A DNA stretch of 64,000 bases from Candidatus Freyarchaeum deiterrae (GTDB lineage: Archaea > Asgardarchaeota > Jordiarchaeia > Jordiarchaeales > Jordiarchaeaceae). The notes under the pieces are model-generated. The model saw only the letters and a program-made list of their open reading frames with translations, made no database searches and was not told the DNA's origin. The position numbers and the translations under genes are program-made. The stretch covers positions 3,200,001 through 3,264,000 of the forward strand of contig CP147778.1 of assembly GCA_037305845.1 (NCBI GenBank), in the 5' to 3' direction. Shown piece by piece: positions 17,785 through 47,119 of this stretch. Every line of letters starts with the position of its first letter. The first letter of the stretch is position 1.

Positions 17785-20142
17785 TCAAAATTCGGTGCGA
17801 GAGATTATCTCGTCTTGAACTCGAGGGTCTAGGTCAACGAATGCTGCTGAAAATCCAGCTACTCTCACCAACAGGTCCTTATATTTCTCGGGATTTTTTT
17901 TAGCTGCAAGGAGAGTTTCTTTGCCCACGAAATTAAACTGTACGTGCATCCCTCCCAAGCTGAAGAAACCCTTGAGGAGAGCGGAGAAGTTTTTAGGCCC
18001 CTCTTTTCCTCTGAAGTAGCCTGGACTAAACTCCAAATTCAAGGCTACACCGTTTGGTGAGAGCTTGTAATCTATCTTTGATGCTGATTTGAGAACCGCT
18101 GTCGGACCCGAGTTCGCCATCCCTTGGGAGGGAGAGATTCCGACCGATAGGGACTCTCCGGCTTTTCTGCCATTCGGGAGTGTTCCTGTTAGCATTCCAA
18201 ATGGGACGTGAGTGGTTGCGGAATAGATGCCAGTCCAGAAATCGCCCCCCCGGTAATTTTTATAATCTTTTATTACATCAGACCACATTTCTACACACCA
18301 TCGCGCATACTCATCGGCTTCGCCGTCGTTCCCATACTTGGGGGCTTTACTCAGCAATTGTCTAAGATTGTCCTGATCCTTGAAATCATTGGCCAAGGCT
18401 TCAAGTAGGGTTTCCATGCTTATTTTCTTCTCTTTAAACACCAGCTTATCTATTGCTGCCAGTGAATCCGCAACCGTAGCAACTCCTACGATTTGAATTC
18501 CGGAAGAGTTGTAAACCGCCCCTCCCTGGGTTACGTCATTTCCACTCTCTAGGCAGCCTTCGGTTAAAGATGAGATAAAAGGATTCGGCCTCTGCTCTGC
18601 GAGGATTTTATCCATAAGGTTTATGCCTTCGACGAACTTTGAAGCGAGGAAATTAACCTGCTCTCTAAAACTCTCCATCAAGTCTTCCATAGTTTCAAAT
18701 TCCCTAGGATTCCTAGTTTCCACTCCAATCCTTATGTTGTTCTTCATCCCTCGGTTCAAAGCCAACTCCAAGGCAAACGCGAGATTAAACAAACCAGCAT
18801 CTCCGCTCGTAAAACTCTTGCCAGGAATCCCGACTTCGACGCAGCCGTTTACCGCATAGTTTAAAGCGTCTTCTCTCTGGATACCTCTTTTCATTAGTGC
18901 TGGAATAGTGATGCCATCGTTGATAAAGTATAGATTAGTCTCTCCACTGACAACCATCTCAGAAACTCTTTCAAGAAATTCTGGAGGAGTGTTTTCATGA
19001 ATTCTAACCCCCAAATTAGGCTGTATGTGACTCCTCTTCCTAGCCTCCAGAGCCAGATATGAAACCTCATTTGTCACATCTTCGCCTTTCTCATCCAATC
19101 CCCCAACAATCACATTCGTGTAAACCGGTAGGCCTCCGAAGAACTGTGTGGTCAGACTATTCCAGAGTGGGATGACCGAGCTTAGCTTCAGAAAGAAGCA
19201 TTCGAGGAGACTCTGAGCGCCCTCTTTAGAGATTTTATCTTTTTCGACATCCGATTTGTAGAAGGGGTAAAGAAGTCTATCTATCCTCCCTACCGAAATG
19301 GAAGCCTCATAATCCTCTATTTGAGCAGCTATTTGGGTGAAGTAAATCGCTTGCAAAGCTTCTTGGAAGGATTCAGCCGGTTTCGCGGGCACCCTTCTGC
19401 ATGTTTTGGCAATATTCTCAAGTTCCTTCCTCCTCCCCGGATCTTTCTCGCTCAACGATAGGGTTTCAGCTTTTTCCGCATAGCGATTTGCGAAATCTAT
19501 CACCGCTTGGCAAGAAATTTTCGCTGCTGCATAAAAATCTCCCTTATCAGGATCACTTTCGGCGAGATACTTATACGCTTCTTTTATGATTCCCTCTAAT
19601 CCATTTTTGAGGACCTTCTCGTAGTTTAAGACTATGTGACCGAATCCCGCTAACTCGGGTATAACAAAAGCCTGACCAGTAAAGTGAATATCTATTAAAT
19701 CCTTTGGCCAGGTTACGAGAGTAATGTTAAGAATGTTCTTGTCGCTCCAGTAGGGAAAAACTTCTTTTCTTAGCTTCTCCACATCCTCCGGTTTTACCAG
19801 AAAAGGATTGGGAACTCGTTTATCCAATTGGTCGAGTTCTCCGTCGAGCCACCCGCCAATAGTCTCAGGATAAATCCCAGCGCCAAGTTCTCTGCTGGTA
19901 ATACTGCCAACTATAAGTTCATCACTCCAAATGTTAACCGGTAGATTAGAAAGTATTTTACGGAGAGCCTTTGCGCGTCTAATAATTACCGGCTCACCTT
20001 CGGTTTCCTTATAACTCTCAGTTATTAATCTAGCTCTTTCGATGCAAACCTCTTTGGGAAGTGATAGCAGTCTGGTTTTCAATTTTTTCGAACGAGATAC
20101 CCCTATACTCTGTGCCTTTTCTTTGGTTTTAAGAGCTTTCAT
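17785..20142 (-). CDS. Glycyl radical enzyme (PFL2/eliminase-like)
   Basis: Cys loop NGCVE, Gly loop LLVRVAGFS, CIERARLITESY; start moved to ATG 20142. Confidence 0.92.
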   Translation of the reverse strand: MKALKTKEKAQSIGVSRSKKLKTRLLSLPKEVCIERARLITESYKETEGEPVIIRRAKALRKILSNLPVNIWSDELIVGSITSRELGAGIYPETIGGWLDGELDQLDKRVPNPFLVKPEDVEKLRKEVFPYWSDKNILNITLVTWPKDLIDIHFTGQAFVIPELAGFGHIVLNYEKVLKNGLEGIIKEAYKYLAESDPDKGDFYAAAKISCQAVIDFANRYAEKAETLSLSEKDPGRRKELENIAKTCRRVPAKPAESFQEALQAIYFTQIAAQIEDYEASISVGRIDRLLYPFYKSDVEKDKISKEGAQSLLECFFLKLSSVIPLWNSLTTQFFGGLPVYTNVIVGGLDEKGEDVTNEVSYLALEARKRSHIQPNLGVRIHENTPPEFLERVSEMVVSGETNLYFINDGITIPALMKRGIQREDALNYAVNGCVEVGIPGKSFTSGDAGLFNLAFALELALNRGMKNNIRIGVETRNPREFETMEDLMESFREQVNFLASKFVEGINLMDKILAEQRPNPFISSLTEGCLESGNDVTQGGAVYNSSGIQIVGVATVADSLAAIDKLVFKEKKISMETLLEALANDFKDQDNLRQLLSKAPKYGNDGEADEYARWCVEMWSDVIKDYKNYRGGDFWTGIYSATTHVPFGMLTGTLPNGRKAGESLSVGISPSQGMANSGPTAVLKSASKIDYKLSPNGVALNLEFSPGYFRGKEGPKNFSALLKGFFSLGGMHVQFNFVGKETLLAAKKNPEKYKDLLVRVAGFSAAFVDLDPRVQDEIISRTEF

Positions 20143-22719: not shown

Positions 22720-25062
22720 GTGAAAATCATGAGAAAAATCAGAGCAAATAAGAAAGCCCTAAAGATAGCAGCAGTCTTAGCAGCAGTACTCCTAACAGCA
22801 ACAATCATCACAGCGGCCACAACAATACAAAACCAAAACCAAAACCAAAACACTTATCCACTCATCAACGCATACCTGCAAGGAGCCCCCCAGAACTCTC
22901 TCACCCCCATTACCGAAAAGGACACCCTCCAATCTCTCTACATATGGTATAACTACAATTTTACGGCTGACATCAACAATGATTCACAGATAATTGTGAA
23001 TGGGTCAAACATAGTGATAAACGGAAACGGCTACTCCTTAATAGGATCCGGATCTGGGTACGGTTTCAACTTAACTGGCGTAAGCAACGTAACCATCTTT
23101 AACGTCACAGTCACAGGGTGGTATTACGGCTTCGACCTAGAAAGCAGCTCGAACAACAATCTTTACAATAACACCGCAAACAACAACACCAACGCCGGCT
23201 TCTACCTGTACACTAGCTCTTACAATACTCTTTCCAGTAACATTGCAAACAACACCACCAACGGCGACGGCTTCTACCTACTCGTCAGCTCAAATAACAA
23301 TACTCTTTCGAGTAACAACGCAACCAACAACGCCCTAGCCGGCTTCGACCTGTACAATAGCTTTTATAATACTTTTTCGGGTAACACTGCATATAACAAC
23401 ACCTACGAAGGCTTCGACCTAGTCTCCAGCTCTTACAATACTCTTTCGGGTAACAACGCGAACAACACCGGCATCGGCTTCTGGCTGTTCGATAGTTCGA
23501 ACAACAATAATCTTTCGGGTAACACCGCAAACAACAACCACTACAACGGCTTCGACCTAGTCACCAGCTCTAACAACAATACTCTCACAAGTAACAATGC
23601 AAATAACAACACCGAAGACTTCTACCTATCCTCCAGCTCTAACAACACTCTTACGGGTAACACAGCAAGCAACAGCAGGGACGTAGGCTTCGACCTGTAC
23701 AATAGCTCAGACAATACTCTTACTGGTAACACCGCAACCAACAACACCTACAACGGCTTCCTCCTAGAATCCAGTTCGAACAACAATACTCTTACTGGTA
23801 ACAACACCGCAACCAACAACGGCAACAACGGCTTCTACCTGTCCAATAGCCATAACAATACTCTTTCTGGTAACACGGCAACCAACAACACCTACTACGG
23901 CTTCATCCTACAATCCAGCTCGAACAACAATAATCTTACTGGTAACACCGCAACCAACAACACCTACAACGGCTTCTACCTACTCTCCAGCTCAAACAAC
24001 ACTCTTACGGGTAACACAGCAAGCAACAGCGGCCAGGCTGGCTTCGCCTTATCCTCCAGCTCAGACAATACTCTTTCTGGTAACACGGCAAACAACAGCC
24101 ACAACGAAGGTTTCCTCCTAGAATCCAGCTCGAACAACAACAACCTTACAAGTAACACCGCTATAAACAGCAACGGCATCGGCTTCCATTTGATTGGAGA
24201 TTCTACTGGCAATAACATCCTAGTTTGCACCGCTTTAAACAGCAGCACAATTGCAGCATACTACTGGGGCACCTGTATAAATAATAATTTTACGGGCAGT
24301 GTAGAGGCGAACTACCTGCGCGTGAACGTCACCGATGTTCTGGGCTACCCCATCCCGGGTGCGGATGTTAATGTTACGACCGATGTAACAGGTGTGTATC
24401 TTACGTCACACTTTGGTGGTACAGACCCCACAACCGGCTCTAATGGTGTAACCTCCTGGATTGCTGTCGCCTACCGAATATTCACAACAAACGATACAAT
24501 GACTACGAACACCACCACTGCTACCGTGTACTATCAGGGGTTCCCCATCTCAGGAAGCCCTAAGACAGTTAACATGTATCAGTCGCATGTGGAAACATTC
24601 CAAGTGACTGACACTGCTGATCCGACTGTCGCAATCACTTTCCCAACTTCTGGTGGTACTGTTTATACTGGTGTTGTCTGGATTAATGGAACCTTCAACG
24701 GCACAGGAAGTAATGTCATTAGTATCACCATCAGCATTACCCTTAACGGCACCAGCTTCACACTGGTTGGGCCCTCAGGACCCCCGTACGGCGTTACGGG
24801 CACCTACAGCTTCAGTGCCACAATCCCACAAGCTGGAGAGTTCGACGTAAATGTCACGGTTCAAGACGGAGCTACACGCACAGCAATGGCCACAAGTCAC
24901 ATCGTGGTGCAGGAACAACCTTCGCTGCTTCCCGCCCTCTCGCTGTTAGCTGGAACGCAGGGTGGCACCAGTCCGCTGGTCCCCGCTGCTATCATAGGTG
25001 TCGTGGGCGTGGTTGTAGTAGCTGGTGGTTTGATCTACTACTTCCGAAGAGTGAAAGCGTGA
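22720..25062 (+). CDS. Membrane-anchored surface protein with about 16 beta-helix repeats and one Ig-like domain (paralogue of 1845)
   Basis: Near-identical signal peptide NKKALKIAAVLAAVLLTAT; GFxLxxSS repeats; AGTQGGTSPLV-TM-FRRVKA tail. Confidence 0.9.
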   Translation: MKIMRKIRANKKALKIAAVLAAVLLTATIITAATTIQNQNQNQNTYPLINAYLQGAPQNSLTPITEKDTLQSLYIWYNYNFTADINNDSQIIVNGSNIVINGNGYSLIGSGSGYGFNLTGVSNVTIFNVTVTGWYYGFDLESSSNNNLYNNTANNNTNAGFYLYTSSYNTLSSNIANNTTNGDGFYLLVSSNNNTLSSNNATNNALAGFDLYNSFYNTFSGNTAYNNTYEGFDLVSSSYNTLSGNNANNTGIGFWLFDSSNNNNLSGNTANNNHYNGFDLVTSSNNNTLTSNNANNNTEDFYLSSSSNNTLTGNTASNSRDVGFDLYNSSDNTLTGNTATNNTYNGFLLESSSNNNTLTGNNTATNNGNNGFYLSNSHNNTLSGNTATNNTYYGFILQSSSNNNNLTGNTATNNTYNGFYLLSSSNNTLTGNTASNSGQAGFALSSSSDNTLSGNTANNSHNEGFLLESSSNNNNLTSNTAINSNGIGFHLIGDSTGNNILVCTALNSSTIAAYYWGTCINNNFTGSVEANYLRVNVTDVLGYPIPGADVNVTTDVTGVYLTSHFGGTDPTTGSNGVTSWIAVAYRIFTTNDTMTTNTTTATVYYQGFPISGSPKTVNMYQSHVETFQVTDTADPTVAITFPTSGGTVYTGVVWINGTFNGTGSNVISITISITLNGTSFTLVGPSGPPYGVTGTYSFSATIPQAGEFDVNVTVQDGATRTAMATSHIVVQEQPSLLPALSLLAGTQGGTSPLVPAAIIGVVGVVVVAGGLIYYFRRVKA

Positions 25063-25130
25063 AAAAATGGGGGCTGGAAGACTCTCCTCAATTTGTTCGG
25101 GAGCCTTGCTCTTCCCCTCCCTTTTTTATT
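25063..25130 (+). terminator. Conserved GC-rich 3' element plus T-tract
   Basis: Homologous to 4527-4592. Confidence 0.6.
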
Positions 25131-45623: not shown

Positions 45624-45922
45624 TTCTAGTCTAACCTCCTCTGCTGAAATTATAAAAACTAGAAAAGTTCGTGTTATTTAAAGCTACCCGTTTATCATCC
45701 TACCCGAAAGTATTAAATTAGATTGAGGATACTACCCCAATTTTCATAATTAAAAGAAGCGTTAAAAACCATCACTAAGTTAAGGGCTAAGCCTAATTTC
45801 AAAAATTTTAAGACATTCTATAATTTTTAAAAAAATAGAGGAGGAGGAATGACGGAGTCGATTTTAGCTTTCATCCTAGTCCCTTTGTGCGATTTGGTGA
45901 CTGCTTTTTCAGCGCACCTTAT

Positions 45923-46198
45923 TCAGCGTATCCACATAGCTTCTTCATTCCTTTTGACCGCTTCCGCTCTAACAATCTCGGGTTCGAAAGTAGTCCAGAC
46001 CTCTTCATTATCCTCATCTTTATCAAAACTAATCTGGACCGTCTCCTTCGATATCATAATAGGGGTGTGGCTCCAGACAACGAGGTCTCCATCGGTACTA
46101 TCACTTAAAATCCCTGGATTGTCACGTGACAATAATGCCAAAAGTCTTTCTTTATCCGTCAGAGCCTTGAAGCGGACAATTATTAGGTCCGATGCCAT
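45923..46198 (-). CDS. Hypothetical protein
   Basis: ORF with ATG 46198 behind GAGGTGG; no recognisable motif. Confidence 0.6.
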   Translation of the reverse strand: MASDLIIVRFKALTDKERLLALLSRDNPGILSDSTDGDLVVWSHTPIMISKETVQISFDKDEDNEEVWTTFEPEIVRAEAVKRNEEAMWIR

Positions 46199-46280
46199 TT
46201 TTTCTTTCCACCTCAACTTGCTTGAACAAACATTACTTCAATATTATTTTTGATTATCGTGATTATTATTTTTAGAAAAC

Positions 46281-46402
46281 CAGTGTCGCTTCATCGCCAA
46301 CACAAAAACTGGGAGAGGGGATAATACACATGGGGGAGGAGGGCGTTTTTTTTTGGGAGGAGGGGGAAGATACAATACCTCAAGTGTTGGCTCAGCACTG
46401 TT
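46281..46402 (-). ncRNA. Candidate K-turn RNA (sRNA or 5' leader) with a C/U-rich loop
   Basis: Minus strand CAGU-GCU-GA-GCCAACAC ... GUGUUGGC-GAU-GA-AGC-gac-ACUG; BRE/TATA about 23 nt upstream. Confidence 0.6.
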
Positions 46403-46424
46403 GTATTCTATGTTTCCAACCACC

Positions 46425-46439
46425 TATTTAAGTTTTTCT
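46425..46439 (-). promoter_or_regulatory. BRE-TATA promoter AGAAAAACTTAAATA
   Basis: Purine-rich BRE followed by TTAAATA, placing the start near 46402. Confidence 0.6.
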
Positions 46440-47119
46440 AGTAAAATTGAGAAAACCGCAATTAAAATAAAACTTTTTGCCTCTTAAATATATAAAAAAT
46501 GAAAAGTTCGCAATATTGAATTCCTCAGATTAGCTTTTAACAGAAGATCATCAGTTTCGGATTAATCCAATTCAGAATGGTGCAGAACACACGTACACAG
46601 TTGGATAAAATACTTGAAATTACCAAACAACTCTCTCCTCTCTATCATGATTGAACTCTTTTTTGAGTTGATGTGTCATCTGGATGTTATTCCAGAGGTC
46701 AAGTCGGATGATTTCAAGGGTAAGACGAAATTGTGACTATCCTTTTCTATTTTTGGTTTCATTTTCAGGGTATTATTTCTGTTTTTTACCATTATTTTCT
46801 GTATTTTTTATCATCTTCATGTATTTTTGGCTCTATAGTATTGTTTTTAGGCAGAATAATGACGTTTTTAGTCCGAAATTAGGAAATGATTCTTTATTCT
46901 TTTAGGGCACTTTATTGTCAAATTTGAGAATATTTTCTCTTATTTTTGAAGTCTTGATTGGATTAGGATTATTTTTCTTGAATATTTCCTTTTTTGATAA
47001 TTTTTAGATTGATATATACCTTTTTCAGTCCAAAAATTGATATTTCAGTACGAAAATAGGAAAGCTTTTTATAGCAGTATTGGTAAAATAGTTGTTAAAA
47101 CTCAAAGGGGTAAATCGAA

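Follow-up and report, generated by a model that had tools for sequence, protein, structure and literature searches.

A kink-turn-clamped small RNA with exposed C/U tracts, conserved in Asgard archaea

Does a short C-rich segment in the genome of Candidatus Freyarchaeum deiterrae encode a functional RNA and, if so, what does this RNA do? The segment lies in a stretch of 64,000 nucleotides (nt) of this Asgard archaeon (assembly GCA_037305845.1, contig CP147778.1, positions 3,200,001 to 3,264,000), here called the window. A preliminary description of the locus had proposed a promoter-linked RNA with a kink-turn (K-turn) and tracts resembling the anti-Shine-Dalgarno sequence. We found that the segment is a gene in its own right, whose product is a non-coding RNA of about 125 nt (minus strand, approximately 46402-46274), and that this RNA is a member of an uncatalogued small RNA (sRNA) family of Asgard archaea. 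Judging from its sequence, the RNA probably controls translation. The best reading, to which we give an even chance, is that its C/U tracts pair in trans with G-rich ribosome-binding sites while the RNA is held on a scaffold stabilised by the protein L7Ae.

The reality of the gene was assessed by the distribution of its homologues. A first covariance model, built from 13 copies, recovered the RNA in 11 of the 11 genomes of the class (Jordarchaeia and Freyarchaeia are synonyms; bioRxiv 10.1101/2023.11.21.568159). With a second model, families f6, f8, f13 (3/3, including two closed genomes), f15 (3/4) and f20 were also positive, with E-values from 1e-9 to 1e-19; the sampled genomes of families f3, f5, f7 and f12 gave no match. 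Members outside the seed scored 42-57 bits (E 1e-9 to 1e-14), while the window copy matched the covariance models R1/R2 at 46266-46403 with 113-119 bits (E approximately 1e-27 to 1e-31). Metagenomes yielded another 17 copies. Two copies are present in the closed 3.58-Mb genome that carries the window, copy A in the window and copy B at 1068930-1069068; relatives in the genus have one or both, and a sister family has one. Eleven bacterial pattern matches in genome contigs and 60 of 77 metagenome matches failed the covariance model, indicating chance matches in GC-rich DNA. Weak model matches in families f18, f17 and f9 (L070-L072) were dropped, as they had no K-turn, and one copy (L014, in G010:C49) was excluded from the alignments because it had 18 N exactly over the 5' clamp strand. 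A 59-amino acid (aa) open reading frame (ORF) on the minus strand (46244-46423) was rejected as a protein: the indels between orthologues are not multiples of three, and a 4-nt indel in an A run shows that the frame is not kept and that the RNA is non-coding.

The whole window, scanned against Rfam 15 at gathering level, gave no match, and an E-value scan of 45800-46900 gave sub-threshold matches only. Among these, a weak match to the alpha-r14/cuckoo model (RF02344), made through CCUCCUCCC, reached 18.3 bits against a gathering threshold of 58.8 (E = 0.72). There is no Rfam 15 family for the RNA, which is uncatalogued, and the literature searched contained neither this family nor any regulatory RNA of Asgard archaea.

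How is the RNA held together? On the minus strand, the promoter, which consists of a B recognition element (BRE) and a TATA box, is followed after about 25 nt by CAGU-GCU-GA-GCCAACAC (46400-46384), a loop of 84 nt, a 3' strand reading GUGUUGGC-GAU-GA-AGC-gac-ACUG (46303-46281) and a U tract (Table 1). Every element listed in the preliminary description (BRE/TATA, stems, bulge, G-A pairs and tracts) is thus in place. The two strands form a clamp in which the canonical (C) stem points to the loop and the non-canonical (NC) stem to the termini, with GA opposite GAU-GA, the standard strand arrangement of a K-turn. The unconstrained minimum-free-energy fold finds this clamp with a z-score of merely -1.4, so that the structure is proven not by energy alone but by the comparison of homologues.

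This comparison covered 23 genomic homologues from seven GTDB families (22 distinct sequences) and nine modelled pairs. The clamp pairs were formed in 97.9% of the cells; six of the nine changed on both sides, and double changes were present in 24 cells. In none of 500 shuffles were the share of paired cells, the number of cells with double changes or the covariation score as high as observed, and pairing fell to 6-55% when the partner columns were slid as a control. In the C stem, 98% of the cells were paired over six modelled pairs, four of which changed on both sides (five of six in an earlier, smaller alignment). The three pairs of the NC helix were formed in 97% of the cells, with double changes in two of the three. 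The outer CAGU/ACUG helix was weaker, being kept in 2-3 of the four A-type orthologues, with one compensatory change from C-G to U-A. The GA dinucleotides of both strands were invariant, and the bulge was 3 nt long, in all 23 genomic and 17 metagenomic copies; the bulge sequence in the genomic copies was GAU (19), AAU (3, family f15) or GGU (1, family f6). Position -1b:-1n was C:G in 22/22 distinct sequences, the usual form of natural K-turns (Huang, Ashraf and Lilley, PMC6298567). With its C helix, 3-nt bulge, tandem G-A pairs, C:G at -1b:-1n and NC helix, the clamp is a K-turn by motif, the sheared geometry of the G-A pairs being read from sequence only. The K-turn arrangement first seen in the single copy is supported by covariation, by the invariant GA/GA and by the constant bulge length, and the clamp covaries across the related genomes in which the covariance models found homologues.

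The 3b:3n pair of the window copy is A:U, that is, Watson-Crick. By the rules established for Kt-7, a Watson-Crick 3b:3n pair blocks ion-induced folding of the K-turn, whereas L7Ae folds every K-turn analysed (PMC6298567). The clamp of the window copy would consequently need L7Ae for folding. Two genes of the L7Ae family (PF01248) are encoded in the closed genome, the gene of the organism's L7Ae lying at 1474430-1474708, and we infer that L7Ae binds the clamp.

Is the RNA transcribed on its own? Upstream of all 23 homologues stood a purine-rich BRE-like run together with a box of the TTTAWATA type, about 20-30 nt separating the end of this box from the outer (NC) stem, and most homologues had a pyrimidine- or U-rich run not more than approximately 15 nt after the clamp (weak in family f20). 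The ends of the window RNA were placed by the distance from the TATA box (5') and by the U tract (3'). These signals suggest that the RNA is transcribed independently; the promoter-linked small RNA initially proposed is supported by the BRE/TATA and the U-rich tail that its homologues keep. Conservation of the promoter, clamp, tracts and U-rich tail extends from the genus of the window to other Asgard classes. In the genus, a conserved box TTTTGCGATTTTCTCAA was present just upstream of the BRE/TATA of the sRNA genes, the orthologous A loci among them (in the window and at the same place in L034, L035, L037 and L027). It was duplicated in one genome, a box related to it precedes the B copy, and the corresponding position in family f2 reads ATTCCTCAAAA. 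This box may be a transcription-factor site. A gene for a TrmB-like regulator follows the B copy.

What does the clamp expose? The 84-nt loop is G-poor and cannot fold on itself, so its three C/U tracts, each containing CCUCC, are held single-stranded. The mean predicted unpaired probability of the tracts was 0.87 in the window copy and ranged from 0.65 to 0.87 across copies, and each copy had a lower value in the remainder of its loop than in the tracts; loop composition was 34-58% C and 4-20% G. In tract 1, CCCCUCCUCCCAA is invariant throughout the class. The motif CCUCCUCCC occurs in tracts 1 and 2, and all tracts lie in one large open loop, with no separate hairpins; their number and spacing differ between families. 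The 13-mer of tract 2, CGCCCUCCUCCCC, recurs in K-turn RNAs of several families; in family f9, 75 of the 135 genomes have it as well, there within a different scaffold. The same 13-mer read backwards (control) gave values near zero. The exposed anti-Shine-Dalgarno-like tracts of the preliminary description are accordingly present, predicted to be unpaired, and conserved. Its other remark on base composition, that the plus strand is G-quadruplex-prone, was misleading, as this is the mere complement of a C-rich RNA.

Table 1. Coordinates of the small RNA gene, its parts and the neighbouring gene in the window.
Feature	Position	Strand	Basis or remark
Whole predicted small RNA, copy A of the family, about 125-129 nt	46274..46402	-	covariance models R1/R2
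BRE/TATA promoter AGAAAAACTTAAATA	46425..46439	-	seen in the sequence and in homologues
Outer helix, 5' strand CAGU	46397..46400	-	pairs with ACUG 46284-46281
NC stem, 5' strand GCU; U46394 is position 3n	46394..46396	-	pairs with 46290-46288
GA of the non-bulged strand (G2n, A1n)	46392..46393	-	opposite GA 46292-46291
C stem, 5' strand GCCAACAC, 8 base pairs	46384..46391	-	pairs with 46303-46296
C tract 1, CUUCCCCCUCCUCCC	46355..46369	-	class-wide conservation
C tract 2, CGCCCUCCUCCCCC, most conserved box	46332..46345	-	conservation in several families
C tract 3, CCCCUCUCCC	46311..46320	-	conserved in genus g1 and families f13, f15 and f8
C stem, 3' strand GUGUUGGC	46296..46303	-	partner of 46391-46384
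Bulge GAU (L1-L3), 3 nt	46293..46295	-	3-nt length constant in homologues
GA of the bulged strand (G1b, A2b)	46291..46292	-	invariant in all homologues
NC stem, 3' strand AGC; A46290 is position 3b	46288..46290	-	pairs with 46396-46394
Outer helix, 3' strand ACUG	46281..46284	-	pairs with 46400-46397
U-rich tract UUUUCU, putative archaeal terminator	46274..46279	-	homologue comparison
Upstream box TTGCGGTTTTCTCAA, candidate regulator site	46447..46461	-	conservation at orthologous loci
Neighbouring 91-aa orphan ORF (MASDLII...), separate gene	45923..46198	-	protein conserved in four genomes of the genus

The C/U box is also present in other RNAs. Family f15 has a second promoter-linked RNA with UUCCCUCCUCCCCUCUCCCCUC, closed by GGCUCG/CGAGCC (L155:1040-1130 and L156:990-1080, both minus strand), in which no K-turn was recognisable. 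In family f9 (genera g10 and g32; L157-L160 and L162-L164), the exact CGCCCUCCUCCCC is carried by an RNA of about 150 nt with two inner hairpins, closed by a covarying stem of 10-12 base pairs (bp) (GACUCCUGCC/GGCAGGAGUC, GCUCCCGA/UCGGGAGC and GACUCCUAUCAG/CUGAUAGGAGUC). A tblastn search found none of the family's usual neighbours beside the f9 form, whose neighbours differ.

With what could the tracts pair? The 3' tail of the 16S ribosomal RNA (rRNA) is GGAUCACCUCCU, in which CCUCC is the anti-Shine-Dalgarno core. A Shine-Dalgarno (SD) 5-mer was present at -16..-4 in 34% of the crude genes (first start), compared to 5% in the background, and hexamers spelling AGGAGGUGA were enriched 10-15-fold before starts; ribosome-binding sites of the GGAGG type are therefore as common as initially supposed. 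Watson-Crick complements of the tracts of at least 6, 7 and 8 nt were present at -20..-3 in 562, 166 and 37 of 3048 genes respectively, compared to 95, 28 and 6 genes in the same test with random 17-mers, and 8-nt seeds were enriched 3.8-fold in ribosome-binding-site windows. These complementarity statistics make pairing with a subset of ribosome-binding sites feasible.

Transcription is predicted to start about 25 nt after the BRE/TATA and to stop at the U-rich tract, and the first and last 20 nt or so pair as the clamp (outer NC stem, tandem G-A, 3-nt bulge and a canonical stem of 6-8 bp). In the mechanism that we propose, L7Ae would bind and fix this clamp, both RNA ends being protected, and the exposed tracts would base-pair in trans with G-rich RNA. 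The likeliest partners would be AGGAGG-type ribosome-binding sites in a subset of messenger RNAs, where pairing would block or modulate the initiation of translation. AGGAGG(A/G)G sites are present, for example, in the genes that start at 2349911 and 43942 of the closed genome.

Several results weigh against these targets. The genes counted above (n = 3048 for the tract complements) were crude ORFs and not annotated genes, and the enrichment of SD matches is weak evidence, as any C-rich RNA matches SD sequences somewhat. Of 4456 8-nt seed sites, only 86-187 were located at candidate start codons. In the closed genome, a search for complements of at least 13 nt, with G-U pairs and one mismatch allowed, gave none outside the sRNA genes; in five other genomes, the near matches to a long complement were only sRNA genes and the second C/U-box RNA. 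The strongest duplexes predicted genome-wide (seeded scans) were formed with intergenic G-rich elements and not with ribosome-binding sites. Finally, CGCCCUCCUCCCC comprises 13 nt, extended to 19-21 nt in most families, and is invariant across classes and three scaffolds; an invariant box of 13-21 nt is much longer than an SD contact of 5-6 nt and is more than SD pairing needs. The invariance of the box, the lack of a complement of at least 13 nt and the preference for G-rich elements keep alive the explanations based on a protein or on G-rich partners.

The most novel explanation considered is that the invariant C/U box CUCGCCCUCCUCCCCUCUCCC (13-21 nt) could be the business end of a conserved Asgard ribonucleoprotein (RNP) and not a generic anti-SD sequence. 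The RNA would be framed by L7Ae, and the box would be either read by a dedicated protein or paired with G-rich, quadruplex-prone RNAs. We consider this reading possible but rather unlikely.

The protein version taken by itself is somewhat unlikely. It states that a sequence-specific single-strand RNA-binding protein reads the box and that the RNA titrates or delivers this protein, L7Ae building the frame only; candidates would be a poly-C binder of the KH type or a factor whose usual ligand is the CCUCC tail of 16S rRNA. This would account for 13-21 invariant nt, including a CG dinucleotide, in three scaffolds (the K-turn clamp, the short-stem paralogue of f15 and the long-stem form of f9), for the lack of a long complement in the closed genome and for tracts predicted to be single-stranded. 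However, no candidate protein is linked to the RNA, and its sole conserved neighbour is a membrane zinc-ribbon protein that was not found in the genome of the window. In addition, the variable number and spacing of the tracts between families would suit pairing modules equally well.

Pairing of the tracts with G-rich, quadruplex-prone intergenic elements, with the RNA acting as antisense, sponge or unfolding RNA and not on ribosome-binding sites, is less probable again, and we rate it as unlikely. Its own antisense aside, the best duplexes of the RNA genome-wide were formed with a set of about 20 G-rich intergenic elements, of which several resemble each other; a cluster of them is found at a distance of 4.3 kb from copy B, and 36% of the top-100 sites were intergenic, compared to about 18% of the genome. 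On the other hand, G-rich runs score well with any C-rich probe, and some of the elements, which border a mobile restriction-modification island, may be scars of integration.

The elements of this set, several of which share GGGTAGAGGGTAGGGGTGGGAATGCAAGGGGAGG..., form the strongest duplexes predicted for the C tracts and include, in genome coordinates outside the window, 3393498-3393554(-), 3391125-3391182(-), 3559693-3559745(+), 3539160-3539223(+) and 3161464-3161501(-), together with 3304770-3304803(-), 24997-25066(+), 19561-19611(+), 3368723-3368760(-) and L073. Two elements flank a gene pair, the larger gene of which resembles, by eye, a DNA methyltransferase. At 4.3 kb from the B copy (approximately 1064517-1064640, minus strand; L008:1400-1560), intergenic perfect hairpins, CCCUCCUCCC-AAAGAA-GGGAGGAGGG and GCCCCCCCUCC-GCGG-AGGGGAGGGG, sit between repeats of GGAGGGAGAGAGGGAGAUAAGCAUG.

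The preliminary description had also offered a regulated leader for the gene at 46198. In this cis-acting reading, L7Ae binding or pairing of the tracts would control read-through or translation of the orphan gene. Each of the four A-type loci in the genus has the same 91-aa ORF behind the RNA, on the same strand and at a distance of about 75 nt, and the ORF's SD, GAGGUGG, could pair with a tract. The ORF (MASDLII..RF...LSRDNPG..SD.TDGDL.VWSH.PI.ISK) matches no Pfam family, and was always located just downstream of copy A (four genomes). However, the linkage is not constant, as there are three unrelated downstream contexts: the orphan ORF follows the A copies, including that of the window; the next gene is TrmB-like for the B copies and in family f2; and in families f13 and f15 it is a glutamyl-tRNA synthetase (GluRS) gene, which is convergent. 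Moreover, a U tract follows the clamp, U-rich ends are kept in the homologues, and a conserved AAAAAGAATATTA-like (TATA-like) box and the ORF's own SD lie between the RNA and the ORF. As the downstream genes differ among lineages, a leader role is highly unlikely.

Archaeal box C/D RNAs are often circular, so that the order of their boxes need not matter. Still, an atypical or permuted C/D methylation guide, suggested by the K-turn and the CUGA-like and GAUGA-like strings, is close to refuted: GAUGA is the bulge GAU (AAU or GGU in other families, giving AAUGA or GGUGA) plus the sheared GA, which makes the earlier analogy with boxes C and D misleading; the 5' string reads CUGA, CCGA, AGA or GGA; 3b is A, G or C and never U, hence 3b:3n is never U:U; the box order is reversed, with no second C'/D' pair and no guide; no complement to rRNA is conspicuous (among 4456 seeds, the best for 16S ranks 143rd and the best for 23S 335th); and no Rfam C/D model matches the RNA.

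The upstream context of the family was steadier than the downstream one. Five families (f2, f8, f13, f15 and f20) share an upstream neighbour, a gene whose product is a multi-pass membrane protein carrying a C-terminal CPxCG...NPxxCxxCG zinc ribbon (L029:702-1346 plus, L038:1761-2270 minus and L068:834-1379 plus, among others); the RNA follows this gene at a distance of 115-190 nt. The gene is itself preceded by a gene with a tRNA-binding domain or a geranylgeranyl reductase gene. The membrane protein was discarded as a partner of the RNA, since it lacks any domain related to RNA and could not be located in the window's genome. Next to the B copy, the tRNA_bind, geranylgeranyl reductase and TrmB-like genes are retained. 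The different context of the window (A) copy, together with the failure to find the membrane/zinc-ribbon gene in this genome, indicates a genus-level duplicate placed elsewhere.

How does the RNA compare with known systems? The closest studied in kind are the orphan L7Ae-binding sRNAs of Pyrococcus (PMC3124441) and the K-turn of the l7ae leader (PMC6298567), neither of which is homologous. P. abyssi sRkB, sRkC and sRk52 (PMC3124441), and RNAs from Sulfolobus L7Ae RNA immunoprecipitation sequencing (RIP-seq; PMC5539422), are likewise archaeal sRNAs with K-turns or K-loops that are neither C/D nor H/ACA RNAs. Gel shifts and footprints demonstrated that L7Ae binds such orphan K-turn sRNAs, and mutation of GA abolished the binding (PMC3124441; PMC5539422). 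The Pyrococcus RNAs, however, are tied to IS200/605-type OrfB repeats, are restricted to Thermococcales, lack C/U tracts and have no sequence in common with the window RNA. The K-turn operator in the 5' untranslated region of l7ae depends on L7Ae for folding and serves translational control, and its 3b:3n pair is Watson-Crick, as in the window copy (Daume 2017; PMC6298567). It works in cis, however, concealing its own ribosome-binding site, whereas the window RNA is free-standing, lies far from the l7ae gene and has the canonical C:G at -1b:-1n. In the internal C'/D' K-turn of archaeal box C/D sRNAs, also an L7Ae site, the GA strand is likewise 5' and the bulged strand 3'; the window RNA differs in having no C/D consensus, U:U at 3b:3n, guide or terminal C/D pair, and in its loop of 84 nt versus 3-9 nt.

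As regards the tracts, the cuckoo or alpha-r14 sRNAs (RF02344; CcsR, NfeR1; PMC4615179) are also independent sRNAs with 2-4 unpaired copies of CCUCCUCCC, an anti-SD-like nonamer that is conserved while the stems vary, and occlusion of ribosome-binding sites has been proposed for them (PMC4615179). In contrast to the window RNA, they are bacterial (alphaproteobacteria) and Hfq-associated, present each motif in its own hairpin loop and have no K-turn. The resemblance is convergent, and the window RNA is not a member of that group. Methanosarcina mazei sRNA41, as summarised in PMC5867862 (Buddeweg et al. 2018), masks ribosome-binding sites; it belongs to a different phylum and, likened here through that description and not by sequence, is a functional analogue only.

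What, then, does the family mean for these archaea? Descriptions of regulatory RNAs from Asgard archaea are very scarce, and this RNA lacks an Rfam 15 model. The family is directly testable: a closed genome exists, and a study of wetland soil has reported metatranscriptomes along with a Freyarchaeia genome, the first complete one (bioRxiv 10.1101/2023.11.21.568159). If the box proved to be the working part of an RNP, the family would represent a class of regulatory RNPs without a described counterpart, in the closest prokaryotic relatives of eukaryotes, with an RNP logic recalling RNAs that are capped by small nucleolar RNPs or bound by poly-C-binding proteins. If, as we prefer, the tracts mask ribosome-binding sites, the RNA would be a widely conserved archaeal translational regulator exposing a motif identical to one that the bacterial cuckoo sRNAs evolved independently, and it would put the L7Ae/K-turn module to a new use, the end-clamping of a trans-acting RNA.

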